From Bacteriovoracaceae bacterium (GTDB lineage Bacteria > Bdellovibrionota > Bacteriovoracia > Bacteriovoracales > Bacteriovoracaceae): a stretch of DNA of 64,000 bases. The DNA lies in the NCBI GenBank assembly GCA_018675575.1, contig JABGXW010000029.1, positions 21,412-85,411 of the forward strand, read 5' to 3'. The translations under genes were made by a program, and so were the position numbers. Below the pieces are notes generated by a model, which saw only the letters and a program-made list of their open reading frames with translations, made no database searches and was not told the origin of the DNA. Of the stretch, positions 2,962 through 54,047 are shown in pieces (within the stretch, counting starts at the first letter, position 1; each line of letters opens with the position of its first letter).

Positions 2962-4649
2962 ATCTTTTCAATTAAATAGTCTTCGATAGCTAAAAATTTC
3001 AAAGGAGATTTTTCAAAAAAATTATAAACATCATTGATATCTTCTACTATCGGTTCCCCCATTGTATTTAAGCTTGTATTCAAGATACAATAAATTCCAG
3101 ATAGGTTTCCATAGTATTTTATTAAGTTATAAAATTTTTCATTTGACTCAAAATGAACAGTCTGAACTCGAGAAGTTTTGTCTTTATGAGTAATTTCTTT
3201 TAACTGATTAGAAAACTTCTCATTTATTGGTAAGGTAAATGACATAAAAGGATTAAGAAAATATTTTTCTACATTAAAATAGAGGTGAACTTTTTCCGCA
3301 AGACAAGCCCCCCCATAGGGTCGAAATTCTTCTCTGAACTTCACCTTGCTATTTAAATAATTCTTTAATTTAGGAAACGAGAGACTGGCCAATAAACTTC
3401 TATGACCTAATGCTCTTTGTCCACATTCGCTTCGGCCCTGAAACCATGCAACAATATTATTTTTATTTAATAATATTGAAACTTCCTTTGATATATTCTC
3501 AAGTTTTGTAACTTTATATTTATTAAAAATTGTAGTTATTTCATGGCCAGTGGGTATTGATAAACTTGATCCATAGTAAGAATGTTGAGCTTTTTTTGCA
3601 ATGACCTTCCATGTAGACCTTTTATCTTTTAAATAGGTGAAGTAAGATAGTCCAAGTGATAATCCCTCATCACCAGGGAAAGGAGGAACATAGATTTGCT
3701 TAAACGTTTTTTGATTAATTAATTCAAAATTATTTGAACAATTTAAAGCACATCCTCCCGTGAAGATTATGTTTTCGTAGTCTGAAAAAGATAATTTAAG
3801 ATCATTAAACTTTCTCTTCATATATTTGGAATATTCATTTTGAGCAGTGGCCGCTAAATCCATATAAAGATTTAGATTCTCTGATTTATCCCAACTGACA
3901 TTATCTGACTTAGAAAATGATTTTGACCAATCTAAGTTCTCTAAGAAGTTAATCCTATCTTTTACAATCATTGGATTTCCAAATGCTGATAATCCCATTA
4001 GCTTTCCGGAGGCCATTTTAGACCCGAACACAAATCTTGCTATATTTTCATAAAAAATTCCTATGCTGTCAGAAAAATATTCATTCATACAAGACTTAGA
4101 GGCTTGAAATTCTTGCCATTCCTTATTTACACATTTAATTTCACCTAAGTTTTGAGTATATACAGACACACTCTCATGTTGATATTTTTTATTTTTAGGT
4201 GCTTCAATTTCCTCTATAACATCGGACTTTCTTGAACCTGACCCATCCACTACAAGAATCAACGACTTTTTAAATGGAGACATTGCCAATGCACAATAGG
4301 CATGTGCATCGTGGTGTCCGATAAACTTTAATTTATTATTATAAACAGAACTATATCTAGTTAACTTTTTAGTTCCTAGATAATTATAAAATGGAAAAGT
4401 CAAATCCATACTTTCTTCATGATCTTTAGGAGTAGTAACATCTCTATTTTCACAAATTATTTCTTCTCCTAGATCTCTAGTATTACAAAGGAGTTCTAAG
4501 GGAAGAAATGGCCAATTGCCAGCATATTTTTTTCTGGTCAGCCTCTCTGTTGATAATATTGTAATATCAGAAATAGAACCATTATAACTAGAGATAGCAC
4601 AAACATTAGAATTATAAATTGTCTTTGCAAGACCTGTAAATGTTTTCAT
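2958..4649 (-). CDS. Carbamoyltransferase, NodU/CmcH/TobZ family
   Basis: 563 aa with HHDAHAYCA, VVDGSG, GGCALN and QRALGHRSLL motifs typical of this family. Its stop overlaps the synthase stop (TTAG). Confidence 0.8.
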   Translation of the reverse strand: MKTFTGLAKTIYNSNVCAISSYNGSISDITILSTERLTRKKYAGNWPFLPLELLCNTRDLGEEIICENRDVTTPKDHEESMDLTFPFYNYLGTKKLTRYSSVYNNKLKFIGHHDAHAYCALAMSPFKKSLILVVDGSGSRKSDVIEEIEAPKNKKYQHESVSVYTQNLGEIKCVNKEWQEFQASKSCMNEYFSDSIGIFYENIARFVFGSKMASGKLMGLSAFGNPMIVKDRINFLENLDWSKSFSKSDNVSWDKSENLNLYMDLAATAQNEYSKYMKRKFNDLKLSFSDYENIIFTGGCALNCSNNFELINQKTFKQIYVPPFPGDEGLSLGLSYFTYLKDKRSTWKVIAKKAQHSYYGSSLSIPTGHEITTIFNKYKVTKLENISKEVSILLNKNNIVAWFQGRSECGQRALGHRSLLASLSFPKLKNYLNSKVKFREEFRPYGGACLAEKVHLYFNVEKYFLNPFMSFTLPINEKFSNQLKEITHKDKTSRVQTVHFESNEKFYNLIKYYGNLSGIYCILNTSLNTMGEPIVEDINDVYNFFEKSPLKFLAIEDYLIEKI

Positions 4650-5510
4650 TTATGAATAGCTTCTTTTTACAATATTAGAATAAACATTAAATCCTGAAGT
4701 TACATCTCCATCGAATACTATTTTTGATTTATCAAGAACAATTAGTCTGTTGCAAATGCTATGGATTTGTTCTCGGTTATGACTGACAAACAAGATCGCT
4801 CCAGATTTATCAATTATATTAATTATTCTTTTTGAAACTTTATCTTTGAAATATTCATCCGCTCCGTCAAAAACTTCATCGAGTATTAATAGATCAGAAC
4901 TTTTTGCTGAGATAACAGATAAACATAACCTTGACTGCATACCCATGCTATATGTTCTAAAAGGTGTATCAATAAATTTTTTCAATTCGCTAAATTTAAT
5001 AGAGTCCTCAATTATTTCTTTCTTCTGTTTATCAGAATATTCTGAATAAATTAGGTTAACTAATAATACAACATTTTCTCTTCCTGTTAACATAGGAAGA
5101 ACACCCACTGAAGTGTTAAATATAAAGCGAACATTTCCATCTATGCATATATCTCCAGTTGTTGGTTTAATCATATCCGTTATACATCTACATAGAGTTG
5201 TTTTTCCAGCTCCATTTATGCCAACAATACCTATCCTTTCATTTTCATAGATATCAAAACTAACCTCCTCTAATACTTGAAATAGTTCAGGAGGGGATGT
5301 GAAGTATGTAATGGGTGATTTTACGAATTGTACAAAAAGATCTCTCATTCCATCAGTTTTAAATTTATCTAGCTCAAATTGTATGGAAAGGTTTTTTATA
5401 GAAGCTATTTTTTTTTTGGGGGTATTTGGTTGTTCATCGCTTTTAAACTTATTCTTTTCTTTAAAATCAAAGGTTTCTTTAATTTGATTTTTTAATTTTA
5501 ATGATGACAT
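4650..5510 (-). CDS. ABC transporter ATP-binding protein, Wzt/TagH/KpsT (polysaccharide-export) type
   Basis: Walker A GINGAGKTT, signature variant YSMGMQSRL (the YSxGM form typical of glycan exporters), Walker B LLILDEV, H-loop VSH. There is an N-terminal extension. No permease partner lies next to it. Confidence 0.8.
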   Translation of the reverse strand: MSSLKLKNQIKETFDFKEKNKFKSDEQPNTPKKKIASIKNLSIQFELDKFKTDGMRDLFVQFVKSPITYFTSPPELFQVLEEVSFDIYENERIGIVGINGAGKTTLCRCITDMIKPTTGDICIDGNVRFIFNTSVGVLPMLTGRENVVLLVNLIYSEYSDKQKKEIIEDSIKFSELKKFIDTPFRTYSMGMQSRLCLSVISAKSSDLLILDEVFDGADEYFKDKVSKRIINIIDKSGAILFVSHNREQIHSICNRLIVLDKSKIVFDGDVTSGFNVYSNIVKRSYS

Positions 5511-5520
5511 TTTTTCTCCA

Positions 5521-6567
5521 TTAATTACTCTTTTTTGAAGTCATATATTTATTTATGAGTCTGATCCTTCTTGATAGCCCAATGACTTGTGAAAGAGGTA
5601 ATTTTTTTTTCATCAATTGTTTTATTAACAAATTATAGTTTTCTTCAATTGTCATTTTGGTCTTCTCATTTAAATTTTGGATTGAATACTTTTCAGGTGT
5701 TCTGAGGTAGTGCAGAGCGACATCCCTTAACTCAAACAAATCGTTGTCTATAAAATAGTGTACCATTTCTGGAAAGTTTTGAATATTTAATGAACTAATT
5801 GTCGTATACGATGTAATGTCCGCATTTGGTAGCTCATTTTTTAGCACTTTTATATTTCTCTCAATCTTTTCCCAGGCAATCCCGGGCCTAATATTCTGGG
5901 CATCTCCATTAATCCCGTCAATACTGATAGAAATTTGTAAATTATTAAACTTTTTTAGATTTTTGATATAGGAGGTTTTTATTGAACTTCCATTAGAATT
6001 AAACTCTAACCTAATATCTGTTCTTTTTAATCTAATTAATTCTTCTAAAAATTCTATTATTTCAGATTGTATAAATGGTTCTCCCCCTGCAATAGTAATT
6101 TTTTTTAATTGATTTAATAGCGGAAAAATATTTTTTTTAATATAGTTTGTATATGTGACAATAGTATTTTCACTACTCCACCTTGAGCTATACTCAGAAC
6201 TACATGTCAAACACTTCATATTACATAGGTTAGAAAATGAAAGGTCTACAGACTCTATTTCTTCTATAGGAGAAGAGGTTATATTGGTATTAATACTTTT
6301 AAATTCTTGTAAAAATACTGACTGTAAACTCTCACCCTTTTGAGTATTTTCTTTTAAAATACAAAATTCACATTGAGGGACAATTTCATCTTTTGACATT
6401 TTTTCTTTTATTAATTTAGATTTATATGAATTTAGAATATCAGCTAAGGGAATTTCATTAATTTCTCCCAAGCAATCACTGGCTTCATAACATGTATATA
6501 TTTTCCCATTCGGTGAAATGAGCACGCTCTTCCACGGCGCAGGGCAATAACTATTATTTATTTTCAT
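5521..6567 (-). CDS. Radical SAM enzyme with N-terminal Cys-rich twitch/SPASM-like module (paralogue 1)
   Basis: N-terminal CPAPW...GKIYTC...C...CEFC module, then the radical SAM triad NLCNMKCLTC (CxxxCxxC), then GGEPF. Confidence 0.7.
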   Translation of the reverse strand: MKINNSYCPAPWKSVLISPNGKIYTCYEASDCLGEINEIPLADILNSYKSKLIKEKMSKDEIVPQCEFCILKENTQKGESLQSVFLQEFKSINTNITSSPIEEIESVDLSFSNLCNMKCLTCSSEYSSRWSSENTIVTYTNYIKKNIFPLLNQLKKITIAGGEPFIQSEIIEFLEELIRLKRTDIRLEFNSNGSSIKTSYIKNLKKFNNLQISISIDGINGDAQNIRPGIAWEKIERNIKVLKNELPNADITSYTTISSLNIQNFPEMVHYFIDNDLFELRDVALHYLRTPEKYSIQNLNEKTKMTIEENYNLLIKQLMKKKLPLSQVIGLSRRIRLINKYMTSKKSN

Positions 6568-6676
6568 ATTTAATAATTTTAATCTATTTTTTAGGTTTAA
6601 TAAATATGATAAAGCCTATTAACTCACATTTCATCTAGAATATCTGTATAATAGCCTGAACGGATGGTGACAAAAG

Positions 6677-7765
6677 ATGAGTGTAAATGTCTATACTGAA
6701 TGGGATCCTCTTCAAGAAATAATTATTGGTAACGTAATAAATACCAAATTAAACTTTGTTATGGATTTTACCTTTAAGCTTTTTTACCATGAAAACATTA
6801 ATGATCAATTAATTAGAAATAATAAAAAACTGCAGCAAAGACTCATTATCCAGAGACAGGAAGATCTTGATAATTTAGCGAATATATTGAGTGATTTGGG
6901 TGTTAAAGTCAAAAGACCTACCATGTTGAATAGTCCATCTGACTTCATAACTCCTAACTTTAAAAGCAATTTACATCCTTCAGACAACCCTAGAGATTTA
7001 GTTCTTATCGTGGGAAATAAAATTATTGAGACCCCCGTCCTAGTTCGTCATAGATATTTTGAAACTGACTTATTGAAACCAATCTTTATGGATTACTTTA
7101 AAAATGGAGCGCACTGGATAAGTGCCCCCAAACCAACTTTAGTTGAGGAATCTTTTGACTATACCTATATTAAAAGTAATGACGCTAATAAACGCTGGGC
7201 GGATGTTAAAGAAGACGACGACAAATTAGAAATAATGTTTGATGCTGCACAATGCATGAAGTTTGGGAGGGATATTATAATGAATATCTCAACGAAAAAT
7301 CACGTATTAGGCGCTGAATGGTTAGAGAGAGAACTAGGCCCTGATTATAAATTACATAGAGTTAATTTAACAGATTATCACTTAGACGGAATGATGATGC
7401 CTCTGGCCCCTGGAAAACTTCTCATTAATCCTATTTCAATGGAAAAAAAGCTACACCTATTACCAGAAGAGCTTCAAAAATGGGATATCATCCATTGTGT
7501 TGATAAGGAAATCGCAACAACAGATGACGAAACTTTATTAATTGCTAGTGAAAATATCAGTGTCAATGTTTTACCGATAAACGAAAAGCAATGCATTGTA
7601 TTTAGTTCCACTGGTAGTGGATTATCTTCCATGAGAAAAAGTTTAGAAGAAAATGGTATCGAAGCAATACCTGTTAGACTTCGGCATTCTAGAGTCTTTG
7701 ACGGTGGCGTACATTGCTGCAGCCTTGATACTATTAGAAAAGGCAACCTTGAAACATATTTTTAA
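6677..7765 (+). CDS. Amidinotransferase (glycine amidinotransferase / StrB1 inosamine-phosphate amidinotransferase family)
   Basis: The C-terminal signature FDGGVHCCSLDTIRKGNLETYF matches the catalytic-Cys block GG-x-HC-x-T/S-x-D-x-R-R/K-G-x-L-x-x-Y of AGAT/StrB1/CyrA/SxtG-type enzymes. Size (362 aa) and the internal H-x-D (DYHLDG) block also fit. Confidence 0.8.
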   Translation: MSVNVYTEWDPLQEIIIGNVINTKLNFVMDFTFKLFYHENINDQLIRNNKKLQQRLIIQRQEDLDNLANILSDLGVKVKRPTMLNSPSDFITPNFKSNLHPSDNPRDLVLIVGNKIIETPVLVRHRYFETDLLKPIFMDYFKNGAHWISAPKPTLVEESFDYTYIKSNDANKRWADVKEDDDKLEIMFDAAQCMKFGRDIIMNISTKNHVLGAEWLERELGPDYKLHRVNLTDYHLDGMMMPLAPGKLLINPISMEKKLHLLPEELQKWDIIHCVDKEIATTDDETLLIASENISVNVLPINEKQCIVFSSTGSGLSSMRKSLEENGIEAIPVRLRHSRVFDGGVHCCSLDTIRKGNLETYF

Positions 7766-7783
7766 TACATCTGGATACCAAGT

Positions 7784-8929
7784 ATGAAAACTAACATCAA
7801 TTATATTGATGAGAAACTTAACGAAGCCAAAAATATTATAAATGAATTTGAAAAGTTTGGTTTTCAGAAAAATGGATTCTGCCTTGTACCATTCACAACA
7901 ATAATTCTGGAACCTAATGGAAATGTGGGGGTGTGTCGATTACATGGAACCGATAAAGCTATTGGAAGTTTAAATAATAACACTATTGAAGAGATATGGA
8001 ACGGTACTCATTTAAAGAAATGGCGAAGGGAATTTTTAGACGGGAAACCTGAGATTTGTAAAAATCAAATTAAAAATAAAAATTGTAACTTATGTATTGA
8101 AAATAATAAATTACTTAATTCTGTCGAGTTCAATGAAACTCAAACTACTCCTATTCAAAAATTAACAGCAAACTTCAATGGTTTTTGTAATTTAAAATGT
8201 ATAATGTGTGATGTGTGGACATTACCAAATGGTTACTATAATGAACAAAACTTCTGGGGTCCAGCACGAACAACAATTTTCCCTTTTTTAAAAGAAATAG
8301 ATATGCTTTCAGGGGAACCTTTTCTACAAGCTGACACTTATAAATTGATAAAAGAAGTAAGTAGGGTAAATACAAAATGTAAATGGTCAATTACAACCAA
8401 CGCCCATTGGAAACTTAATCAATCTATAAAAGGCCATCTTGACTTAATTGACATAAAGAATTTAATCATCTCTATAGATAGTGTTAATACAAATACCTAT
8501 TCAAATATTAGAAAAGGCGGAAAGCTAGATGTTGTATTGAAAAATGTAGAACACCTCTTGGATTATCAAGAGCAACGACTTAAAAACAATAAATCAAGTT
8601 TAAATATATATGTAAATTTTCTTGTTCAAAAAGAAAACTGGAATGAAATTTCTGACATGATTCAATACTGCATTTCGAATGAGATCATGCCATTCATTTC
8701 ATTTTGTGAAAGGCCAGAAGAATACAGCTTACTAGATTATGACGAAAAATTGAGAATTGAGATTCTCGAGTTCTATTTTTCAAATTTAACTAAAGTAGAA
8801 CTCTTCTTTAGTCTTAGAGTAATTAGACCACTAATTTTTTCTTTACCTGCAATTTTCAAAGCTGATTTTCTAACTAGACTAAATGACATGTCCTTCAATG
8901 ATACCTATCTCCCTGTAGTAAACTTCTAA
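7784..8929 (+). CDS. Radical SAM enzyme with N-terminal twitch/SPASM-like module (paralogue 2)
   Basis: FCLVPF...PNGNVGVCR...NTIEEIWN...C..C module, then GFCNLKCIMC (CxxxCxxC), GEPFLQ, TTNA-W. Collinear with paralogue 4. Confidence 0.7.
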   Translation: MKTNINYIDEKLNEAKNIINEFEKFGFQKNGFCLVPFTTIILEPNGNVGVCRLHGTDKAIGSLNNNTIEEIWNGTHLKKWRREFLDGKPEICKNQIKNKNCNLCIENNKLLNSVEFNETQTTPIQKLTANFNGFCNLKCIMCDVWTLPNGYYNEQNFWGPARTTIFPFLKEIDMLSGEPFLQADTYKLIKEVSRVNTKCKWSITTNAHWKLNQSIKGHLDLIDIKNLIISIDSVNTNTYSNIRKGGKLDVVLKNVEHLLDYQEQRLKNNKSSLNIYVNFLVQKENWNEISDMIQYCISNEIMPFISFCERPEEYSLLDYDEKLRIEILEFYFSNLTKVELFFSLRVIRPLIFSLPAIFKADFLTRLNDMSFNDTYLPVVNF

Positions 8930-8979
8930 GTGGGTAAAAATGAGCAAACAAAACAACACACTGTTTCGAATTTTTTATA

Positions 8980-10803
8980 ATGCTAATTTGGAGGTTTTTT
9001 TTGGATAAAAATAATAACATATTTTGCCTGGCCCCCTGGGTACATGCTCATGTAGATGTAGAAGGAAAGAGGGCCCTATGTGATTTCAGTGATCCTATAG
9101 AGGGTATCTGTAACAATTTATCTCTGAAAGAGTACTGGAATAGTCCTGAAATTAAAGAAAGAAGAGTCATGATGTTAAATGGTCAAGCACCAAAAGAATG
9201 TCATTCATGTTCTAAACGGAGAATTTCAACAGAACCTCATTGTGTAGAATTTAATAATCCATATAAATACCTTGTACCAACGATATTAAGAAATACCAAA
9301 GTTGACGGATCGACGTCCATGAAGCCATTCTATTATGATTATCGTTTCTCTAATATTTGCAACTTTAGTTGTAAGATGTGTTCAGCACCAAATTCTACAT
9401 TAATTGAAAATGAAACAAGAAAGTTTAATAATATAAATCCTAAACAACCTACGTTATATGAGAATAGAAAAGTTAATAATGAGAAAATATATTTACCTGA
9501 GTTTTTACAGAATATTGAAAAAGGACATGTTCAAAAAATATCCTGGGCCGGGGGAGAAACATTAATCACCCCAGAACACTGGGAGGTCATTAATAAGATA
9601 CTTAATCTTGATATGCAAAAAAAAATATGTCTATCATACAGCACTAATTTTAGTATTGAAAACTACAAAGGTACCAAAATCCTTGATATTCTCAAAGACT
9701 TTAAACATATATCTTATGAATTAAGTTTAGATGGAATTAAGGAGGTAGGTGAATTCATTAGATCCGGATTAAACTGGGAAACATTTTATACGAACTTTAA
9801 GAGTTTACCTATTCGTTCAAATCTCGACATCTCATTTGCTATTACGTTGACCATTCCTGGTATTCTCGATATCAAAAATCTCATCGATTTTCTACTAGAA
9901 GATCGACTTAAATATGTTCCTGTTTTTTGTATTGGAGATTATTCAACCGATGTCATGTCTCCCTTTATTCTTCCGAGACATCTTTATGATCAACTGCTCG
10001 ACAATTTCGAAAAGTTGGTAATAGAATACAATGACCCGTATCTTGATAATTTTATTGATTTGATCCATTCAATGAAAAATACGACAATCATTGAGGAATG
10101 TATCAATCTAGATATTAAAGATTTCATTAGTGCAAGAAAGTTTCATTCATTTAGAGAGCAATTAAATCCGCATCAAATAACATTAAATGAAATTTTCAAA
10201 ATTAAATCACCAGATATTTATAAGTGGTGGTTAAAAAGTGATGATGAACTAATAAAAAGCAGTCTTAGCCTAGTTGAATACAGACACATACTTCACAATA
10301 AAGAATGGGATGATAAACATTCTTATTCCAGCGAAACTTTTCAAGAGAAAGTAATTCTTACGACCACATTTAATTTCACGGGAAACTTAGAAACTTCCCC
10401 TAAGCTATTCTATGGTACAAACTTAATTCGTGAGATTACAGACCCTGTTGAGTATCTAAATAAATTATCAAGGCATATTAATAAAGAAGACAGAGTGTCT
10501 CTGATAGATGCTACTGGGAATATATTCAGTTCATGGCTAAATCGAAAAAACTTAAATTCTTATCAAAATAAAATTATCCTATGGCGTTTGATAAACCTTC
10601 CTGCCGATGAGTGGGATCGGAAATTCCCAAATTTAATTATTTTATCTACAAATTATCTTTCCCCGATCTCTTTCATTCTTCGAAATAAAAATGTAGACAA
10701 TAGATTAATATCTATCATTTGTAAGTTTGAATTTTTGGTTAGCTTCCTTAATCCTGTAATCTCGCTACACTTCAGAGTTCTTTTCAAAAGAAGGGACGAT
10801 TGA
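8980..10803 (+). CDS. Radical SAM enzyme with N-terminal twitch/SPASM-like module plus about 200-aa C-terminal extension of unknown function (paralogue 3)
   Basis: FCLAPW...GKRALC...ECHSC module, NICNFSCKMC triad, WAGGETL. The start is uncertain: there is no SD before ATG 8980, and an upstream ATG at 8940 is one T out of frame across a T8 tract. Confidence 0.65.
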   Translation: MLIWRFFLDKNNNIFCLAPWVHAHVDVEGKRALCDFSDPIEGICNNLSLKEYWNSPEIKERRVMMLNGQAPKECHSCSKRRISTEPHCVEFNNPYKYLVPTILRNTKVDGSTSMKPFYYDYRFSNICNFSCKMCSAPNSTLIENETRKFNNINPKQPTLYENRKVNNEKIYLPEFLQNIEKGHVQKISWAGGETLITPEHWEVINKILNLDMQKKICLSYSTNFSIENYKGTKILDILKDFKHISYELSLDGIKEVGEFIRSGLNWETFYTNFKSLPIRSNLDISFAITLTIPGILDIKNLIDFLLEDRLKYVPVFCIGDYSTDVMSPFILPRHLYDQLLDNFEKLVIEYNDPYLDNFIDLIHSMKNTTIIEECINLDIKDFISARKFHSFREQLNPHQITLNEIFKIKSPDIYKWWLKSDDELIKSSLSLVEYRHILHNKEWDDKHSYSSETFQEKVILTTTFNFTGNLETSPKLFYGTNLIREITDPVEYLNKLSRHINKEDRVSLIDATGNIFSSWLNRKNLNSYQNKIILWRLINLPADEWDRKFPNLIILSTNYLSPISFILRNKNVDNRLISIICKFEFLVSFLNPVISLHFRVLFKRRDD

Positions 10804-11871
10804 GCTGGCTGCAGTAATTAATCTTGAGAACTTACCCTCTGTAAGTAAGTCTAGCATCTTAAAATATTTTATTTGTAAATTATTTGGAAATGTTTCCACA
10901 AGTGCTCTTAATACCCGATGAGATATCAACAATTCACGTTGGGACATTTTTGAAAAATAATACTTAAGTATTTTTTTTCGTTGAGCCAGACCTAGTGTCG
11001 AGGGAGATAAATTCTCAGGGCTGTAAACATATTGAACAAATGGAAATAGATTATTTTCTTCACAGAAATTAAGCATTTCTATTATCTGGAAAGCATTTTC
11101 CCGTTGGATAGAAAAATTAATTTCCAAGTGAAAATCTTTTTCTTTTTGAAAAAGTTTAAGGTCGTCAATTGTTTTAAGTGCATTTCCCAATTTACCTGGA
11201 GCGCGAATAGATTCATAGGTCTTAGGATCTACTGTATCTAAACTAACTGATATACGGTTAATTTTAATTTTTCTCAAATGAGACTTTATTGATTCAGAAA
11301 GAGACCATTGTGCGTTTGTCGTAAAGCGCCAAGACAATGCGGGATTCGAGTCTGCTGCCAGGTTAATTATTTTATATAAATCTGGTTGCAGAAATGGTTC
11401 TCCCGCAAGAGGATCGATTTGTATTAAATTTGGAATGATATGCTTTTTTAAATGTTCCCAGAATCCATCTATTTTATCATATTCATGATTAGGCATGGCC
11501 CATATATTACAAAATGGGCATTGAAGGTTACAAAATCCGTTAATGTCTGGCGATAATCTTAATATTGGAGTTTTTACGACCTCCGAGGCGTCAATGTAGG
11601 GCAATAAATCAAGATTAGAGTGTAGCTTATTACAAGAGTTGTGATTGATATATTCTTTGCATGTTACAATATTTCCAGTTAAAAACTCCAGCCTCCAGTC
11701 ACGAAATTTTTTATTGTTCCAAATCTCTTCAATTGTATTTTCGTGAATATTCCCAAGAACATGACCAATACCCAATTCCCTACATGAGCCTACATGTCCA
11801 TTGGGATTTAGAATCAAACTTGCAAAAGGTACTGGACAAAATACCTTGGGTAGTGATTTACCATTTTTCAT
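10765..11871 (-). CDS. Radical SAM enzyme with N-terminal twitch/SPASM-like module (paralogue 4)
   Basis: FCPVPF...PNGHVGSCR...NTIEEIWN module, GFCNLQCPFC triad, GEPFLQ, TTNAQW. Its 3-prime end overlaps paralogue 3 by 39 nt (convergent). Confidence 0.7.
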   Translation of the reverse strand: MKNGKSLPKVFCPVPFASLILNPNGHVGSCRELGIGHVLGNIHENTIEEIWNNKKFRDWRLEFLTGNIVTCKEYINHNSCNKLHSNLDLLPYIDASEVVKTPILRLSPDINGFCNLQCPFCNIWAMPNHEYDKIDGFWEHLKKHIIPNLIQIDPLAGEPFLQPDLYKIINLAADSNPALSWRFTTNAQWSLSESIKSHLRKIKINRISVSLDTVDPKTYESIRAPGKLGNALKTIDDLKLFQKEKDFHLEINFSIQRENAFQIIEMLNFCEENNLFPFVQYVYSPENLSPSTLGLAQRKKILKYYFSKMSQRELLISHRVLRALVETFPNNLQIKYFKMLDLLTEGKFSRLITAASSIVPSFEKNSEV

Positions 11872-11956
11872 ATTAGATCCATAATCATTTGGTCATTGTT
11901 ATTACTCAGCCTGTGATATATTATATCATTAGTCACATGAAATAGAGGTAATAATT

Positions 11957-12247
11957 ATGACTTCATATGCCAATTCAGATATGGTTATTAAAACTGTAGA
12001 CGATATTGTTACTAGAAAAAATGATAATGGTAGTATCATACTTATGAAAATGAACGACTCAGATAATTTTTTCAAGATTGACGGCATAGCATCAATGATC
12101 TGGCGCGAATCTGTAGACAATGGTCGACAACTTGGTGAAATATTTAAGCTAGTAATTGACGGATATGAAGTTGAGGCCAGCACATTGGAAAAAGATATAG
12201 ACAAATTATTACAAGATCTCAGATCCCACAAACTCATTGTTGAATAA
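11957..12247 (+). CDS. PqqD-family protein (RiPP-recognition-element-like peptide chaperone)
   Basis: 96 aa. The pattern DNGSIILMKM..DNFFKIDGIASMIWRE..NGRQLGEIFKLVIDGYEV....LEKDIDKLLQDLRSHKLIVE follows the PqqD family profile (LN-x-x-a-x-x-iW, y-v-x-x-x-x-x-e-x-Dv-x-x-fl-x-x-L-x-x-x-x-li). Good SD (AGAGGT) 8 nt upstream. Confidence 0.65.
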   Translation: MTSYANSDMVIKTVDDIVTRKNDNGSIILMKMNDSDNFFKIDGIASMIWRESVDNGRQLGEIFKLVIDGYEVEASTLEKDIDKLLQDLRSHKLIVE

Positions 12248-13241
12248 ATCTTAAAACATGATTAAGTGTCTCCTTCTCGTTACTTCCATATATAGTATAG
12301 AACTTCGAATTACTTATTAAATTAAACGCCGCCCAGATTCTCATTAGAAATATCTTAATTTTGGTCCAAAAATCCTTAATCCCAAATTCCCAAAATAATT
12401 CTAGAACCTGAGGTGTGCCGACCCCTAAAATAAAATATAAGAATAAGTCTTGATAAATTTCTATACGTTTTGATTTACCTAAAGAGCTTGTTTTACTGTC
12501 CCTATGTAGAAAAATAATATCTTCTCGTTTTTTTTTATCTTGATTTTTATCGTAAAAAAAATCTGCCCTGAGTAAATACTTTACATCATGATTAGTGCGG
12601 ACAAAATTTGACGTATATCCTTTATCATATTTTAACAATTTATTTTGATCTTTAAATCCTAAACGAAGTGGAAAGTGGAACCTATCCTGTGCGGAAACGA
12701 GAGTTATGTCGTCTGATGAATATTTCAAATTATTCTTTGAATTTAATAAATTTAAACATAGTGTTGATTTTCCAATACCAGAAGCCCCGACAAGAATGAA
12801 GTTCTTTTTCTCATTATATACACACATGGAATGAAGTCTGTGAATTCCGTCTATATCTAACATTTTCCCAACTCTAGACAATGTGGCAAGATAGATTATT
12901 TCTCTAGTTAAAATATCATTCTTTGAAAAGATTTTAATTGCTTCACTATCGAAATTTATTTTGAGAAGAAGTTCATCGTAATAATTAATATATCTACAGT
13001 TTTTATATTCATAGAATACTTTCCCATTATATGTTTTAATATTTTGAGATTGATTGTTAAATCTTAAAAGGTCAGGTTTGTCATAAATATGATCAATTTT
13101 AACATGAACAAGATTTGGTTTTCCTCCATCCGCGAATTCAAAGCTTTTAAAGTCAAATGACACATTCTCCAGAAGGCCATTAACAGGAGAATTGATACTG
13201 ACCATTTTACCTAAAAACAAAAAAAATTTACTTGATAACAT
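12234..13241 (-). CDS. HPr-kinase-related P-loop protein (HprK C-terminal-domain-like kinase)
   Basis: The P-loop LVGASGIGKSTL sits in the context typical of the HprK/P C-terminal domain (GxSGxGKS). The N-terminal half has no recognisable motif. Convergent with the PqqD gene, overlapping it by 14 nt. Confidence 0.55.
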   Translation of the reverse strand: MLSSKFFLFLGKMVSINSPVNGLLENVSFDFKSFEFADGGKPNLVHVKIDHIYDKPDLLRFNNQSQNIKTYNGKVFYEYKNCRYINYYDELLLKINFDSEAIKIFSKNDILTREIIYLATLSRVGKMLDIDGIHRLHSMCVYNEKKNFILVGASGIGKSTLCLNLLNSKNNLKYSSDDITLVSAQDRFHFPLRLGFKDQNKLLKYDKGYTSNFVRTNHDVKYLLRADFFYDKNQDKKKREDIIFLHRDSKTSSLGKSKRIEIYQDLFLYFILGVGTPQVLELFWEFGIKDFWTKIKIFLMRIWAAFNLISNSKFYTIYGSNEKETLNHVLRFIQQ

Positions 13242-14112
13242 GGTATTTCCTAGATAAATAAATCACTATCCCGATAAAAATGGCAATCCCATATGCTATA
13301 TGAATAAGTGGAAAGGTTAAAAAGGCAAGAAAAAAACAACCTATCGACGCGGACGCTCTTGCCAAAGAAAAGGAAAATAAAAAATCTAATGTTAGATAAA
13401 TAATTATTACAGGAGCAATATCAGTTGGAAAAATTAAACCATAAATTAATAGCAAAACAAAAAGGAAAGGAAGAAGGTAAATTATCTTTTTCGGAGCAAA
13501 ATTTACAAGAACATGCTTACCACGCGAAAATGCATAATAATAAATTTTTTTTATTACTTTTATATACGATTTACCAATTGTCCTAGTTACAATTGCCTCT
13601 GGATGATACCAGACATCATTTTTATCAACTCTAGATAAAAACTCATTCTCCTCATTGGGATAGAATCCAGGCTTAAAACCATTATTCTTTAAAAAAAAAT
13701 CCTTATTTATTACCATATTACATAATATTAACTCTCTTTCAGTTGATAATCTGGGACACCCAAGAGAAGAGTATCTAGCTCGAGAACTTTGAAAGGCAAA
13801 CCAAGATTTAAAAATATATGAAAAGAAATATGAATTAAAATTTTCTGATCTTATTAAAGCGGGGCCACCAACGACATTTACCCTATTATTATTAATAAAC
13901 TCTTTGTATTTTGCTAAGATATTTTTTGATAATTCACAATCGTCATCTAGAAATAGTAACCAATCGGAATTTGCCTGCCTAGCTGCCTTATTTCTTTGTT
14001 CTGAGGGATCATTCCCCTCCATACAAATAATTTCATCAACCAGATGAATTTTTTTATTTTTTTTCAGCACAACATTTGATATATTTTTACATGCAATTAT
14101 AATCGTAAACAT
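13228..14112 (-). CDS. Family 2 glycosyltransferase with C-terminal transmembrane segments
   Basis: MFTIIIACKN start typical of GT2, PSEQRN, DxD block LFLDDDCEL, hydrophobic C-terminus. I moved the start to ATG 14112, which removes the divergent overlap with the protease gene. The ORF track extends to 14160. Confidence 0.75.
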   Translation of the reverse strand: MFTIIIACKNISNVVLKKNKKIHLVDEIICMEGNDPSEQRNKAARQANSDWLLFLDDDCELSKNILAKYKEFINNNRVNVVGGPALIRSENFNSYFFSYIFKSWFAFQSSRARYSSLGCPRLSTERELILCNMVINKDFFLKNNGFKPGFYPNEENEFLSRVDKNDVWYHPEAIVTRTIGKSYIKVIKKIYYYAFSRGKHVLVNFAPKKIIYLLPFLFVLLLIYGLIFPTDIAPVIIIYLTLDFLFSFSLARASASIGCFFLAFLTFPLIHIAYGIAIFIGIVIYLSRKYHVIK

Positions 14113-14145
14113 AGTTAAATTATATGAGATTAGGTCAATTAAGTC

Positions 14146-15603
14146 GTGATTAAAAATCATTTTTATTTATATTCTCTATGCTATATTTTTTTTTTATCAC
14201 TAACTTCTGGTTGTTTGGTAAATAATGGTTCACAGTCCCTACTTCCAGCGAAATATGACCTTAGAGAATCTAATATTATCACTCTGCCAAAGAAACAGGC
14301 ATGGGGTACCTGCTGGGCACATTCCGCGATCTCATCAATTGAAAGTAACTTTTTATCAAAGCAAAAAGATAAGTCACTAGCAGAGATAAATTTCTCAGAG
14401 TACCATATGGATAAATTTAATGGATTTAATCGTGATGGGATTAAAGGTGAAGTTCTAAATACTGAAAAAAGCGGGCAAGGAATTGATTTCATAGGTTCAA
14501 ATCTCGACGATAGGCAGTCTGGTCTACTGGTCCATCAAGGTGGTGATATGAGAATAGCTACCGCTTACATTGCAAATAATGGAGGAGTAGTTAATGAAAA
14601 AAAATCTCATTTTATTTCTAACTCCCATCAAGATCACGACGTATTCGGGAACACCTCAATTACTGGGATCAAAAGAAGAGATATGTATCGTTATTATTTT
14701 TCACGAGATATTCAATTTCTAACCTTATTTGGCACAAACAGAGAAAAAAGAATCAAAATCAAAAAGGCCATAATTAATCACGGTGCCGTTTCAAGTGGAC
14801 AGGTTCAAACTAATAAACCTTTCGGTTTCTTTAACAATATGGAGGTTCATTTTCACAATGGTAATAAAGAAATTGACCACGCAATCAGCCTCATTGGATG
14901 GAATGATCACCTAGAAGTTGATGGTCATGTTGGAGCATGGCTAGTAAAAGATAGCTTCCATCAAAGTGAAACGACTGGTAAATATATCAAATACTTTTAT
15001 ATTTTATACGATGATATTCATGTAGCAAAAAACCCATTCCACGGCGGCACATCTTTTGCTAATACTCAATTAGAAAAGTTTAATTCCATTTACACTCATT
15101 CTCTTCATGGATGGAGATACACAAGTACAAATCTAAAAATTAAAGCAGTTGCCAGTAAGTATCTAATATCGCGGGAGAAAAAGATCGCGGGAGTTGGCAT
15201 CTATTCTACTCAAGAAAATTCAAGATATGTGCTAACAATACATTCATCATCACTAGATGGTCCTATTGTTTTTACAAAAGTATCAAAAGTTAAATATCCT
15301 GGATTTCACTTTGTTTCAGCCAACTCCCTAAGCATAAAGTCTGGAATATACTTTATAAAACTGGCTCTAAAACGACCAGCCTATCCATATGATGCCTCAT
15401 CTACAGTTGATGTATTATTAAGTGAGACTACTAAAAAAATACAAGTTAACTCCTCTGCCAACAAGGGAGAAAGTTATTATTTAATTGATGGGCAATGGAA
15501 AGACTTTAGCTCGTACAAAGATAAGCATAACCTTCAAAGAAAAAACAGTCATGCTATGAAATACGATACTGCCAATATCTCAATGAATTTGTATACTCAT
15601 TAA
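14146..15603 (+). CDS. Papain-family (C1) cysteine peptidase, predicted lipoprotein
   Basis: Lipobox LTSG-C after a hydrophobic leader. Active-site Cys block QAWGTCWAHSA (papain Q...CGSCWAFS). His block DHAISLIGWND. C-terminal region of about 200 aa is beta-rich. GTG start. Confidence 0.75.
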   Translation: MIKNHFYLYSLCYIFFLSLTSGCLVNNGSQSLLPAKYDLRESNIITLPKKQAWGTCWAHSAISSIESNFLSKQKDKSLAEINFSEYHMDKFNGFNRDGIKGEVLNTEKSGQGIDFIGSNLDDRQSGLLVHQGGDMRIATAYIANNGGVVNEKKSHFISNSHQDHDVFGNTSITGIKRRDMYRYYFSRDIQFLTLFGTNREKRIKIKKAIINHGAVSSGQVQTNKPFGFFNNMEVHFHNGNKEIDHAISLIGWNDHLEVDGHVGAWLVKDSFHQSETTGKYIKYFYILYDDIHVAKNPFHGGTSFANTQLEKFNSIYTHSLHGWRYTSTNLKIKAVASKYLISREKKIAGVGIYSTQENSRYVLTIHSSSLDGPIVFTKVSKVKYPGFHFVSANSLSIKSGIYFIKLALKRPAYPYDASSTVDVLLSETTKKIQVNSSANKGESYYLIDGQWKDFSSYKDKHNLQRKNSHAMKYDTANISMNLYTH

Positions 15604-17405
15604 TCACCAAAAAAAGATTTTAATCTTTCATAGTTATCTAATACAGGATCAGAAAATGACCTATGTTTTTTGGCATCTTTATAGTGAGAATAAGCTTTAT
15701 CATAATCTTTCTTATGAAAGTAATATTCACCTAATTTATAATTATATTTGAACAAGTTTTTATTGGTTATTGCAACTAGTCTTGTTTTTTGATAGTTAAT
15801 TTTATGTCTCGTTTCGTCTTTTATAATAAACTCATCTTCTAATTTATCCACAAGATACTGAGATAAAATTGTATCATTAGTATCAATCGCAATTTTTAAC
15901 ACCGTATCCAAAGTTTCGTTATGAAATTTAAGTGGATTGTCTTTATAAAACTTCAGAAACTCTTCTTTTTGAAATTTGTCATCGCATTTATCTATAATTT
16001 CAGCATAATATTCGAACATCTTATTTTTTCTAATTTCATTAGGGTGATTTAGGTAAAAAGAGACATTATTTTTTACTTTTATATAATTTTTTTCTTTCAT
16101 GTGAGCGGTTATTAGAGAAACTCTTACGTGATAATTTTCAGGGTTTTTATTAAGTATCGCCTGTAGAATAGTAGAGTCTTTTTGCCATCTGTTGATATTA
16201 AAAATCGTCGTAAATAAAAATGTGATACCAAATGCTATTAATAGGCCATCCCTAACTTTTTTATCCCTAATTTTAAAAAGGGCCCATACCAACATGAAGC
16301 TGTAAGAAACAGAGCCAAAATACATATAACGCGACGAGGTTACACTTATTGCCTGAAAAGGAAACGGTATTAATCCAGAGAATGGTAACAAAGTAACAAT
16401 AAAAGCAAAAACTGAGAAATAATTTTTTAATATCTTCTTATTTTTTAATACTGTCGATATTTTAAAAATTCCAACAAAGAAGGTCATCCTTAGAATAAAA
16501 TCTATTGAATTTATATTATATAGTGATCGGTCCAAGAATGATTTCGCACTGCCAAACACAGTGTTAAATGGAAATAAAAAATGATTAATGTAATATGAAT
16601 AAGCATGGAAAGATAAAAAGAGTCTATTTTGTACACCTATTTCATTACTTCCAAGCTCGTGGATACTCTTCAATTGAAAAAAACTATAAGTAGCTGAAAT
16701 AGAAAGTAATACCAGAGAGAATGCAAAAACGTATTTGATTTTAATTTTATAGAGCATTAAATCAATTAAAATAATGATAATAGGCAAGGAAATTGCGTCT
16801 TGTTTAGACAAAAGTGCAAAGATTAAATACAAAACTGTATTCAATGAATAATATTTTTGATTTTTCTCTCTCCATTTTAAATGATTTAGAACACATAGAA
16901 GAGAAAAGAACAAGCTCAGCACACCTCTTAACCCAGATAGCCAAACCACTGTTTCTACATTTACTGGAAATATCAAAAAAGTACCAGCTACGAAAGCAGG
17001 TAAGTATTTCAGATCACTTATATGTTTAGTTTTAACTAGTTGTTCTAATAATTTATAAATGATTATAGAATTTAAGCTGTGAAAAATAATATTAATTAAA
17101 TGTAGAATTATTTGCTGATGCTCTAGTTTGAAGTTGCTTGTTAGGGACCAAATAAGATTGGGTATTGGTGTTTTAAAACTAGTCACTATCTGAATAATTG
17201 AAGAAAAGGTACTACCCATTAATAGAGGATTTTTAAAAATATAATGATCATCATCAAAAATAAATTTATCAAAAAAGATTGAAGGTTGATATAATAACAC
17301 TCCAACAATTAAATATATTGAAAACAGGCAAACTCTATTCATATTTATACGGGAAAAAATATCTTTGAAATTTTTAATTAGATGTATTTTATCTATATTG
17401 TCCAT
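15600..17405 (-). CDS. GT-C fold membrane glycosyltransferase, TMTC/PMT_2-like, with C-terminal TPR domain
   Basis: About 10 TM segments. The first-loop acidic motif KFIFDDDHYIFKNPLL resembles the F-x-F/Y-DD...N motif of TMTC/PMT-type O-mannosyltransferases. The C-terminal 170 aa are TPR-like (YYFHKKDYDKAYSHYKDAKK). I moved the start to ATG 17405 (MDNIDKI) to avoid overlapping the upstream pilin-like gene. Confidence 0.65.
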   Translation of the reverse strand: MDNIDKIHLIKNFKDIFSRINMNRVCLFSIYLIVGVLLYQPSIFFDKFIFDDDHYIFKNPLLMGSTFSSIIQIVTSFKTPIPNLIWSLTSNFKLEHQQIILHLINIIFHSLNSIIIYKLLEQLVKTKHISDLKYLPAFVAGTFLIFPVNVETVVWLSGLRGVLSLFFSLLCVLNHLKWREKNQKYYSLNTVLYLIFALLSKQDAISLPIIIILIDLMLYKIKIKYVFAFSLVLLSISATYSFFQLKSIHELGSNEIGVQNRLFLSFHAYSYYINHFLFPFNTVFGSAKSFLDRSLYNINSIDFILRMTFFVGIFKISTVLKNKKILKNYFSVFAFIVTLLPFSGLIPFPFQAISVTSSRYMYFGSVSYSFMLVWALFKIRDKKVRDGLLIAFGITFLFTTIFNINRWQKDSTILQAILNKNPENYHVRVSLITAHMKEKNYIKVKNNVSFYLNHPNEIRKNKMFEYYAEIIDKCDDKFQKEEFLKFYKDNPLKFHNETLDTVLKIAIDTNDTILSQYLVDKLEDEFIIKDETRHKINYQKTRLVAITNKNLFKYNYKLGEYYFHKKDYDKAYSHYKDAKKHRSFSDPVLDNYERLKSFFGD

Positions 17406-17439
17406 GGTCGTCCGTGACAAGCATAATTTTTTATTTATT

Positions 17440-53970: not shown

Positions 53971-54047
53971 TATTATTCCATAGATTTAAAGATTGTAAGA
54001 AATGCTATTGGAAGACTATAATGGCAAAGACTAAAAAGGAAATATAA

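Follow-up and report, generated by a model that had tools for sequence, protein, structure and literature searches.

SPASM and twitch domains have been defined as C-terminal extensions of the radical S-adenosylmethionine (SAM) core, and in BtrN the auxiliary cluster has four-cysteine ligation and is the proposed electron acceptor in a two-electron oxidation (PMC9012708). BtrN, the butirosin 2-deoxy-scyllo-inosamine dehydrogenase (PDB 4M7S/4M7T), is the founding twitch enzyme. The reverse order, with a twitch domain ahead of the core, is already catalogued in NCBIfam as NF033640 (N_Twi_rSAM, "twitch domain-containing radical SAM protein"; curated cutoff, 170 bits). Here we analyze four predicted radical SAM (rSAM) enzymes with such an N-terminal twitch domain (N-twitch), P1 to P4, whose genes surround an amidinotransferase gene in a metagenome-assembled genome (MAG) of a Bacteriovoracaceae bacterium (assembly GCA_018675575.1, contig JABGXW010000029.1). 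The window, as we call the whole stretch of DNA analyzed, comprises 64,000 nucleotides (contig positions 21,412 to 85,411, forward strand) with a G+C content of about 30 to 39%. An earlier note on this DNA had stated that no biochemically characterized member of the family was known to its author, and our searches agree: we found no paper describing a substrate, a reaction, or other biochemistry for any N-twitch rSAM, and neither PDB sequence searches nor Foldseek returned a close PDB relative of P1 to P4 or of the family profiles.

The earlier note had also reported four rSAM open reading frames (ORFs) flanking an amidinotransferase, and all of them are found in place, as follows.

5521..6567 (-), P1, N-terminal-twitch rSAM, 348 aa, ORF intact
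6677..7765 (+), amidinotransferase (AGAT/StrB1/HsvA/SxtG family), 362 aa, between P1 and P2
7784..8929 (+), P2, N-terminal-twitch rSAM, 381 aa, ORF intact
8980..10803 (+), P3, N-terminal-twitch rSAM with a C-terminal alpha/beta domain, 607 aa, ORF intact
10765..11871 (-), P4, N-terminal-twitch rSAM, 368 aa, ORF intact

The amidinotransferase gene is divergent from P1 across a 109-bp gap, the start of P2 lies 18 bp downstream of it, and P3 and P4 are convergent with a 39-nt overlap. This layout suggests two putative divergent transcription units around the 109-bp gap, one comprising P1, an ABC transporter ATPase, and a carbamoyltransferase and running leftwards, the other comprising the amidinotransferase, P2, and P3 and running rightwards. 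A scan of positions 2800-14300 for consensus promoters and terminators was uninformative because the number of promoter-like sites (60) was no higher than that expected by chance (63).

Domain order and predicted cysteine ligands

In all four proteins (4/4) Pfam places a SPASM match (PF13186) ahead of the Radical_SAM match (PF04055), and each SPASM match exceeds the gathering score of 21.5 bits. The matches and the cysteines of the twitch module and the rSAM motif are given below.

P1: SPASM PF13186 at residues 8-69 (35.1 bits), Radical_SAM PF04055 at residues 110-270; twitch cysteines C8, C26, C66, and C69; rSAM motif C115-x3-C119-x2-C122
P2: SPASM PF13186 at residues 33-94 (39.8 bits), Radical_SAM PF04055 at residues 131-294; twitch cysteines C33, C51, C92, C101, and C104; rSAM motif C135/C139/C142
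P3: SPASM PF13186 at residues 16-77 (26.2 bits), Radical_SAM PF04055 at residues 122-276; twitch cysteines C16, C34, C74, and C77; rSAM motif C127/C131/C134
P4: SPASM PF13186 at residues 12-65 (42.2 bits), Radical_SAM PF04055 at residues 112-239; twitch cysteines C12, C30, C71, and C80; rSAM motif C114/C118/C121

The best NCBIfam match for each of the four was NF033640, so that the comparison with SPASM and twitch models proposed in the earlier note came out in favor of its reading. We also built a twitch-only profile from 14 N-terminal modules (from the window, the related locus L001, Halobacteriovorax marinus, Haliscomenobacter, Reichenbachiella, Marinifilum, and a Halobacteriovoraceae MAG), and its sole match among all PDB sequences was BtrN (E value of 2e-10), where it aligned to the C-terminal residues 165-247 with C169, C187, C232, and C235 all aligned. 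With two classic-order twitch domains of the same island added to the profile, the BtrN match rose to an E value of 3e-17. Whole-family profiles that cover both clades (A2 and A8) match BtrN only as N-terminal part against BtrN C-terminal part. The same swap is visible within the window, where residues 12-82 of P4 match residues 170-238 of the classic-order rSAM-twitch protein encoded at 25609-26358 (BLASTP E value of 2e-4) and residues 109-187 of P4 match residues 10-92 of that protein (E value of 0.003), the order of the two segments being reversed. The twitch domains of the island's classic-order enzymes in turn match positions 4-89 of the NF033640 model, with E values of about 1e-10 (1.7e-10 for the rSAM-twitch/DegT fusion described below). 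In the AlphaFold2 (AF2) model of P3, which has a predicted local distance difference test score (pLDDT) of 84.5, residues 16-78 fold into a beta-hairpin with helices after it, the pattern of a twitch domain; Foldseek searches with this model returned distant matches to CteB, SkfB, SuiB, and EpeE (E values of 1e-4 to 1e-3, TM scores below 0.3).

Because the N-terminal module matches the C-terminal twitch domain of BtrN with the four ligand cysteines aligned, we assign P1 to P4 as circularly permuted twitch-type radical SAM enzymes. This is in line with the earlier interpretation of the cysteine-rich N terminus as a twitch auxiliary domain preceding the core, which the Pfam matches, the BtrN alignment, and the swapped BLASTP segments bear out; domain identity, permutation, and cysteine conservation were all computed directly. 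The modules contain 4 to 5 cysteines within about 70 to 90 residues, which is the count of a one-cluster twitch domain and not that of a two-cluster SPASM domain (7 to 8 cysteines).

A common pattern of C-x-x-P-F/W, G-x4-C, and C-x-x-C had been described for all four modules, and most of it is present: the module starts (CPAPW, FCLVPF, FCLAPW, and FCPVPF) and G-x4-C were recovered, as were the rSAM motif strings (NLCNMKCLTC, GFCNLKCIMC, NICNFSCKMC, and GFCNLQCPFC), and P1 to P4 all retain CxxxCxxC together with a GGE-type motif. The C-x-x-C element does not extend to P4, which has C-x8-C instead (...C71KEYINHNSC80NKLHS). The second CxxC cysteine is also absent from the P4 orthologues of L001 and L069 (H. 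marinus) and from related sequences of L066 and L011, and within the P2/P4 clade it (C104 in P2 numbering) occurs in P2 orthologues only. Four cysteines remain in P4 because its orthologues keep a compensating, invariant C71, and since P4-type orthologues lack the second CxxC cysteine, their cluster is predicted to be ligated, probably, through C-x17-C...C-x8-C, a variant of the twitch motif. Among 56 NF033640-type sequences (P3 numbering), C16, C34, and C74 are each kept in at least 90% and C77 in all, and the three rSAM cysteines are invariant; the P2/P4 clade (P2 numbering) shows no exception at C51, C92, and C101, and at least 90% of its sequences have C33.

P3 was expected to carry an extra C-terminal domain of about 200 residues, and the NF033640 match, which covers residues 13-388 of 607, indeed leaves an extension of about 220. 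In the AF2 model the part after residue 388 consists of a helical region, a disordered linker (residues 443-484), and a confidently modeled alpha/beta domain.

10417..10800 (+), P3 C-terminal domain, residues 480-607 (128 residues), AF2 domain model, pLDDT 89

The top 50 of 50 Foldseek matches of this domain in the PDB are class I SAM methyltransferases, all weak (best, 2p7i; E value of 5.7e-3, TM score of 0.49), and the modeled piece has 128 residues, compared to 165-378 for the top methyltransferase matches. Pfam gave no match for the domain at E values up to 1, no GxGxG-type first half or glycine-rich SAM-binding half was seen in it, and five positions are invariant among five homologues. 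By this weak structural match the model resembles the second half of the class I SAM-methyltransferase fold, and we read it as a vestigial or binding domain, not as a working methyltransferase. Full-length P3-like proteins are rare (P0002, P0004, P0005, and P0006; 29-53% identity). One of them, P0005 (595 aa), is encoded together with a 312-aa gene in a UBA6166-like relative, where the two are inserted directly after an M16 peptidase gene (L002, 6203-12773). The window has an rSAM (373 aa) and an M16 peptidase (858 aa) at 52849-56624, beside the dnaK operon and free of the P0005-type insertion. We considered the M16 peptidase, which together with another rSAM stands next to P0005, as a clue to a ribosomally synthesized and posttranslationally modified peptide (RiPP) and rejected it; the region is syntenic with the window at 46.9-63.5 kb, where there is no N-twitch gene. 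The M16 association is best described as housekeeping synteny because the window's own dnaK operon-rSAM-M16-Band_7 pair region lacks an N-twitch gene.

Paralogues, family, and genomic context

The name "twitch domain-containing radical SAM protein," which the earlier note gave for this architecture, applies to part of the set. P1 (239.7 bits) and P3 (266.1 bits) pass the NF033640 cutoff, and P3 itself, which is identical to MBT7608729.1 of a Bacteriovoracaceae MAG, is annotated with this name in GenBank. P2 (85.7 bits) and P4 (100.8 bits) score below the cutoff of 170, and the NCBI names of P2-type orthologues are just "SPASM domain-containing protein" or "radical SAM protein." By these scores and by phylogeny, P1 and P3 are assigned to NF033640, and P2 and P4 to two sister clades seen here only in Bdellovibrionota.

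P2 and P4 are 40% identical over 325 residues (E value of 7e-88) and lie on opposite strands on either side of P3, which agrees with the relatedness and inverted arrangement inferred earlier from their shared strings; P1 and P3 have 24% identity. Orthologues of P1, P2, P3, and P4 in L001 are 60, 68, 53, and 70% identical, respectively, and H. marinus encodes orthologues of P2 (58%) and P4 (55%) side by side in convergent orientation, P3 being missing in between. A neighbor-joining tree places P1 to P4 in separate clades, those of P2 and P4 being sisters. P2 has 272 homologues; among the 120 matches listed (45-68% identity), all named ones belong to Bdellovibrionota, and a search with P2 gave no phage match. 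Since each of the four has orthologues in other genomes and falls in a separate clade of the tree, we regard them as ancient paralogues, not as recent duplicates. Their age was computed directly from these comparisons, as was gene co-occurrence from the contexts of the homologues, which we recorded as the earlier note had proposed.

The family is large, with 4285 representatives at 50% identity matching the family profile (E value of ≤1e-30) among 1.84 billion proteins. Many members are 800-1100 aa long and have two matched stretches (P0257, P0264, P0277, P0289, and P0292), two N-twitch rSAM units being fused in tandem. Scanning the genomes that represent each species gave 58 loci, mostly in Bdellovibrionota and Bacteroidota; further holders include Legionellales, Elusimicrobia, Rickettsiales, Betaproteobacteria, Acidobacteria, other groups, and marine ultra-small genomes. 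Arrays of 3-5 N-twitch copies per locus are common. In one recurrent cassette (L004-L008, L019, L021, and L035), hosted by Haliscomenobacter, Legionellales, and freshwater metagenomes, proteins of ~300-345 aa that lack a Pfam family are interspersed among 4-5 N-twitch rSAMs. The cassette also holds a carbamoyltransferase and a DUF6071/GDSL protein; in L004, L005, and L019 it contains a distant amidinotransferase-fold protein (25% identity). A viral origin of the packed arrays of L004-L008 was considered and rejected, as the same cassette is present in Haliscomenobacter MAG contigs (L019 and L021). Vibrio jumbo phages gave a weak match only (25% identity) in an uninformative context.

The identification of the central ORF (6677-7765) as an amidinotransferase holds. 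It has no Pfam or NCBIfam match, and phmmer against the PDB recovered full-length homology to HsvA (E value of 6.5e-58), AGAT (1.9e-52), and StrB1 (7.3e-52); with SxtG included, the E values range from 6.5e-58 to 2.3e-49 over residues 3-361. The protein is as similar to the inosamine-phosphate amidinotransferase StrB1 as it is to AGAT. The catalytic triad of AGAT is Cys-His-Asp, and the motifs that surround these three residues are kept: ...GGVHCCSLD, YHLDG, and FDAAQ align with HsvA [HC(C/A)(S/T)LD, (Y/M)H(L/I)D, and FDAA]. Orthologues with 47-79% identity adjoin N-twitch rSAMs or lie within about 4 kb of them in L001, L057, L065, L066, L071, and L072, and every locus with a homologue this close has such an rSAM at that distance. 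L071 and L072 were found via the amidinotransferase itself; for the other loci the link is biased because they were found through the rSAM. A metagenome scan with the single amidinotransferase sequence gave no match, and an alignment-based scan gave three loci only. The orthologue of L057 (8851-9936, minus strand; Halobacteriovoraceae MAG) has one in-frame stop (…RYF*NDLF…) and is either a pseudogene or affected by an assembly error, and that of L065 is intact.

The genes around the four paralogues, as far as the island edges, are as follows.

1..2961 (+), 3' part of a polyketide synthase (PKS) gene (AT-ACP-KR-DH, 1137 aa in full); Pfam KR, PKS_DH_N
2958..4649 (-), carbamoyltransferase, NodU/CmcH type, 563 aa; Pfam Carbam_trans_N, Carbam_trans_C, E value of 1.7e-55
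4650..5510 (-), ABC transporter ATPase, Wzt/TagH type, 286 aa; Pfam ABC_tran
11957..12247 (+), PqqD-family protein, 96 aa; Pfam PqqD PF05402, E value of 4.2e-10; RiPP recognition element fold
12234..13241 (-), P-loop protein, HprK-related-kinase-like (weak), 335 aa; TIGR04352 E value of 1e-4, TIGR04355 E value of 7e-4
13228..14160 (-), family 2 glycosyltransferase (GT2) with a hydrophobic C-terminal half, 310 aa; Pfam Glycos_transf_2, E value of 6.7e-10
14146..15603 (+), papain-family (C1) peptidase with a lectin-like domain; Pfam Peptidase_C1, Lectin_like
15600..17474 (-), hydrophobic, probably multi-pass membrane protein, 624 aa; weak TPR signal in the C-terminal region
17440..19242 (-), type IV pilin-like protein, 600 aa; Pfam N_methyl
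20112..21164 (+), HGSNAT-type membrane acyltransferase, 350 aa; Pfam HGSNAT_cat, E value of 3.6e-8
24766-25584 (+), RnfD/NqrB-like membrane protein, solitary, 272 aa; island edge
25609..27552 (+), rSAM-twitch/DegT fusion, 647 aa; Pfam Radical_SAM 10-112, SPASM 170-237, DegT 252-518
27530..28561 (+), Zn-dependent alcohol dehydrogenase, 343 aa; Pfam ADH_N
28562-30340 (-), FAD-dependent protein like halogenases and geranylgeranyl reductases, 592 aa; island edge

The carbamoyltransferase co-occurs with N-twitch rSAMs in 15 of the 67 fetched loci. The best NCBIfam matches of the ABC ATPase, all below cutoff, are galactan and teichoic-acid export ATPases, and it has orthologues in L001 (73%) and L071 (44%). 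PqqD homologues lie near N-twitch rSAMs in L001, L014, L053, L058, and L071. The TIGR04352 and TIGR04355 matches of the kinase-like protein are confined to its P-loop region, PDB and Pfam searches with it gave P-loop noise only, and homologues occur in L001, L049, and L066. In L001, where the GT2 orthologue has 52% identity, the HGSNAT-type orthologue directly follows it after a non-coding gap of about 160 bp. The fusion protein combines a BtrN-size classic-order rSAM with a C-terminal twitch domain (residues 1-245) and a DegT aminotransferase, with orthologues in L001 (68%) and L066 (45%). The Zn-dehydrogenase that follows it has Tdh and the scyllo-inosose 3-dehydrogenase IolM as its best NCBIfam matches (below cutoff) and orthologues in L001 and L066; this arrangement looks like a fused "oxidize then transaminate" unit.

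The C1 peptidase/lectin protein has a homologue (34% identity) near the P2/P4 pair of H. marinus. Homologues of the TPR membrane protein occur near N-twitch rSAMs in L001, L014, L049, L069, and L071. In the pilin-like protein, a G|FSLVE prepilin motif is combined with repeats rich in Gly/Thr/Val and a C terminus rich in Cys, and a pilin-like protein of 682 aa adjoins the P2/P4 pair in H. marinus. Across this trio (14146-19242), which also stands beside P2/P4 in H. marinus (L069, 13704-20403), local G+C climbs to 0.39.

Upstream of the window, the JGI listing of the contig shows a family 1 glycosyltransferase (GT1), a further BtrN-size rSAM, a 448-aa gene, the L001 counterpart of which matches rSAM proteins weakly, and a ketosynthase (KS) and AT-ACP-KR-DH PKS pair. 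Counted from GT1 to the Zn-dehydrogenase, the island spans about 30 kb. The KS gene (681 aa) and the PKS gene lie between GT1 and the carbamoyltransferase, both are absent from the syntenic L001, and the pair may add a variable acyl decoration. L001 further has a gene (998-1426, plus strand), with an equivalent upstream of the window, for a 142-aa protein annotated with a Peptidase_S74 domain (tail-fiber intramolecular chaperone) and hardly anything more. Its neighbors on both sides are rSAM genes, a setting in which a phage tail-spike maturation domain is unusual.

Parts of this gene set recur in other combinations. L001 is syntenic with the island of the window. In L066 the amidinotransferase, kinase-like protein, and dehydrogenase occur with rSAM/DegT and a P2-like gene. 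A carbamoyltransferase, PqqD, and an N-twitch rSAM are found together in L053 and L058, to which L053 adds a BtrN-size rSAM and DegT, and L049 combines the kinase-like protein with a BtrN-size rSAM. At L071, three N-twitch rSAMs are accompanied by an ABC ATPase, DegT, PqqD, the amidinotransferase, and a BtrN-size rSAM. L057, L065, and L072 have the pair of amidinotransferase and N-twitch rSAM. The four copies are thus split into modules found separately in other genomes. The 123 neighbors at single-copy loci include GT2 (7), GT1 (3-4), GDSL (4), and DegT (2) proteins, and the 131 neighbors at multi-copy arrays include rSAM (34), TPR (6), carbamoyltransferase (4), and NDP-sugar epimerase (3) proteins.

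Proposed function and alternatives

We favor, with somewhat more confidence than doubt, a reading in which P1 to P4 are permuted twitch rSAMs that hold two clusters each and most likely act on a sugar or cyclitol in a guanidino/carbamoyl pathway. The genes described above form a recurring guild of amidinotransferase, carbamoyltransferase, rSAM/DegT, Zn-dehydrogenase, kinase-like protein, PqqD, ABC ATPase, GT1/GT2, and acyltransferase. A sugar or cyclitol substrate is favored because of this enzyme set and because BtrN, a cyclitol enzyme with a fully ligated cluster, is the sole structural relative of the module.

The cluster binding, chemistry, substrate, and final acceptor that we infer are as follows. 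Each of P1 to P4 would bind two [4Fe-4S] clusters, a SAM-cleaving one on CxxxCxxC and an auxiliary one on the four N-terminal twitch cysteines. Reductive cleavage of SAM would give a 5'-deoxyadenosyl radical that abstracts H from an unactivated C-H bond, the second electron would pass to the auxiliary cluster with its full set of Cys ligands, as proposed for BtrN, and the product would be a ketone or another oxidized or rearranged species; the auxiliary cluster may take up electrons in an oxidation or relay them in an epimerization or deoxygenation. On what would most likely be a sugar or cyclitol intermediate, the dehydrogenase or the BtrN-like rSAM would convert an alcohol to a ketone, DegT the ketone to an amine, and the amidinotransferase the amine to a guanidine, after which the carbamoyltransferase (O-carbamoylation), the kinase-like protein, the glycosyltransferases, and the exporter ATPase would act. 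The product would probably reside on a surface glycoconjugate, possibly the neighboring pilin-like protein, which could be the acceptor or target of the pathway.

Several observations weigh against this proposal. The rSAM cores of P1 to P4 are not BtrN-like; they match TigE, viperin, SkfB, and MoaA best, each of them weakly. The locus yielded no enzyme that would form a sugar nucleotide or a cyclitol (NDP-sugar synthase, inositol-phosphate synthase, or DOI synthase), and no permease was seen beside the ABC ATPase. PqqD has a peptide-binding fold and the kinase-like protein resembles HprK-type protein/peptide kinases, both of which fit a peptide substrate better. Most neighbors in the L019 array lack a Pfam family, and the cultured Bacteroidota Reichenbachiella and Marinifilum have single copies with no glycan genes around them, in settings that are otherwise uninformative. 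The P2/P4 pair of H. marinus is accompanied by the pilin-like, TPR membrane, and C1-peptidase/lectin genes and lacks the amidinotransferase, carbamoyltransferase, and DegT, and for this reason the four enzymes may not share one scaffold. The earlier suggestion of several radical steps on one scaffold is further weakened by L057, where the amidinotransferase and a single N-twitch rSAM stand alone among housekeeping genes.

That the four are instead RiPP-type protein or peptide maturases is possible, if doubtful. PqqD would here present a peptide or protein, either a precursor or the pilin-like protein, on which the rSAMs would install crosslinks, epimerizations, or oxidations while the kinase-like protein, glycosyltransferases, amidinotransferase, and carbamoyltransferase decorate side chains. 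The discrete PqqD, which is kept in the five loci named above, argues for this, as do the best NCBIfam matches of the kinase-like protein (HprK-related kinases A and B), the linkage of P2/P4 to the pilin-like, TPR membrane, and C1 peptidase genes in both the window and H. marinus, and the peptide enzymes CteB, SkfB, SuiB, and EpeE among the Foldseek matches. HPr-kinase homologues are known to phosphorylate lasso precursor peptides (PMC8498205), and most characterized SPASM enzymes act on peptides (PMC9012708). However, no free-standing ORF of at least 20 aa was found in the core gaps of 109, 18, 50, and 85 bp; when all ORFs of at least 20 aa across 5400-16000 were listed for a precursor peptide, the small ones were nested in genes and none lay free in the short gaps; a precursor may be encoded elsewhere. 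Pfam shows no fused recognition domain in P1 to P4, and PqqD occurs at a small minority of the fetched N-twitch loci. The module's sole solved match, BtrN, is a cyclitol enzyme whose four-Cys cluster leaves no open iron site for a peptide cysteine; DegT, the Zn-dehydrogenase, the carbamoyltransferase, and the glycosyltransferases point to carbohydrate chemistry; and the M16 peptidase context of P0005 is housekeeping synteny.

A bolder form of the carbohydrate reading, which we consider unlikely, is that the locus encodes a new pathway in which N-twitch rSAMs and a dedicated amidinotransferase build a guanidinylated, carbamoylated amino-sugar or aminocyclitol on a type IV pilin-like surface fiber of predatory Bdellovibrionota. 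It would involve radical chemistry new to the superfamily (e.g., C-C or C-N bond formation, or multiple deoxygenation or epimerization on one ring), with PqqD serving as a non-RiPP scaffold.

It is also quite improbable, in our estimate, that the amidinotransferase works with one N-twitch rSAM in a small-molecule pathway of its own, unrelated to glycans, that makes a guanidino metabolite from arginine and an amine, the other copies serving separate pathways that share the island. The case for such a pair comes from L057, where the amidinotransferase (48% identity), a 396-aa N-twitch rSAM, and an FAD oxidoreductase stand alone among the genes for MetRS, Tex, TilS, FtsH, and FolP; from L065 and L072, which have the same divergent pair; from the divergent pairing of P1 with the amidinotransferase in the window; and from the closest solved relative of the latter, HsvA, which amidinates polyamines. 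Yet in the window, L001, L066, and L071 the amidinotransferase gene is embedded among DegT, dehydrogenase, carbamoyltransferase, and glycosyltransferase genes, the L057 copy has the in-frame stop, and the rSAMs next to the amidinotransferase in L057 and L066 group together in a clade separate from each of P1 to P4.

We consider it very unlikely that the N-terminal cysteine module is not an Fe-S domain, being a zinc ribbon or structural motif, or that some copies are decayed and inactive. Such a reading could draw on the missing canonical CxxC of P4 and on the scores of P2 and P4 below the NF033640 cutoff, but the module is a homologue, with every ligand position aligned, of the four-Cys twitch domain that crystallography defined in BtrN, and P4 orthologues keep four cysteines, including the invariant C71. 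CxxxCxxC and the GGE-type motif are kept in all four copies, and orthologues are 53-70% identical in L001 and 55-58% identical in H. marinus, which argues against this reading as well. That one or more copies are radical SAM methyltransferases is hardly credible, as the uniformly class I methyltransferase matches of the P3 C-terminal domain are weak and come from a short piece with five invariant positions among its homologues and no GxGxG-type first half, and Pfam detects no cobalamin-binding (PF02310) or HemN-like domain in P1 to P4.

The locus is a lead into a large, biochemically unexplored enzyme family, one that will be no surprise to the specialist. It offers several entry points: four divergent paralogues stand together, the BtrN link predicts four ligands for the auxiliary cluster, and the partnership with an amidinotransferase and a carbamoyltransferase is repeated. 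Orthologues of P2 and P4 are present in the cultured H. marinus, where genetics may be possible. If the sugar or cyclitol reading is true, it would mean that predatory bacteria carry a new guanidino-glycan on their surface or pili, and it would bring to light new radical carbohydrate chemistry; if the peptide reading is true, RiPP-like maturation would extend to a permuted enzyme class.

Comparison with known systems

Among carbohydrate pathways, the closest in logic is that of streptidine and bluensidine, which uses a dehydrogenase, a DegT-type aminotransferase, a kinase, the amidinotransferase StrB1, and a carbamoyltransferase. The same enzyme types are present at the locus, and what they share with that pathway is its logic alone: the locus yielded no cyclitol synthase, the kinase-like protein belongs to the P-loop proteins and does not have the aminoglycoside-kinase fold, and the streptidine-type pathway has no counterpart of the N-twitch rSAMs and PqqD. 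The hosts also differ, being actinomycetes in one case and a predatory Bacteriovoracaceae MAG in the other.

The GeoRSP and "HPr-rel-A" systems defined in TIGRFAMs combine an rSAM/SPASM protein with PqqD and an HprK-related kinase, and a trio of auxiliary-cluster rSAM, PqqD, and HprK-related P-loop protein is likewise found at the locus. P4 weakly matches GeoRSP_rSAM (TIGR04303), P2 matches GeoRSP_SPASM (TIGR04304), PqqD matches TIGR04302, and the kinase-like protein matches TIGR04352 and TIGR04355; all of these matches are far below the family cutoffs, and the rSAM domain order differs. The SPASM/twitch peptide maturases (CteB, SkfB, SuiB, PqqE, and EpeE) belong to the same superfamily branch, and the locus shares with them a PqqD protein. 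In those enzymes, however, the auxiliary domains are C-terminal (PMC9012708) and usually hold two clusters, and the systems include a recognition domain, either fused or dedicated, as well as a precursor peptide, which was not found at the P1 to P4 locus.

BtrN remains the only PDB match of the N-terminal module, and it acts on an aminocyclitol beside a DegT-family aminotransferase, just as the locus encodes a BtrN-size rSAM fused to DegT. The twitch domain is C-terminal in BtrN and N-terminal in P1 to P4, which are longer by 100-350 residues and have cores that are not detectably BtrN-like. NF033640 has the same order as our proteins, an N-terminal twitch domain followed by the rSAM core; P2 and P4 differ from it as sister clades below its cutoff, with C-x8-C in place of CxxC in the P4 type, and P3 differs in the added half-methyltransferase-like domain of about 128 residues. 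What is new here is the direct link to the BtrN ligand set, the P4-type C-x8-C, the tail of P3 with its likeness to half a methyltransferase, the repeated association with amidinotransferase and carbamoyltransferase genes, and the modular split of the copies.

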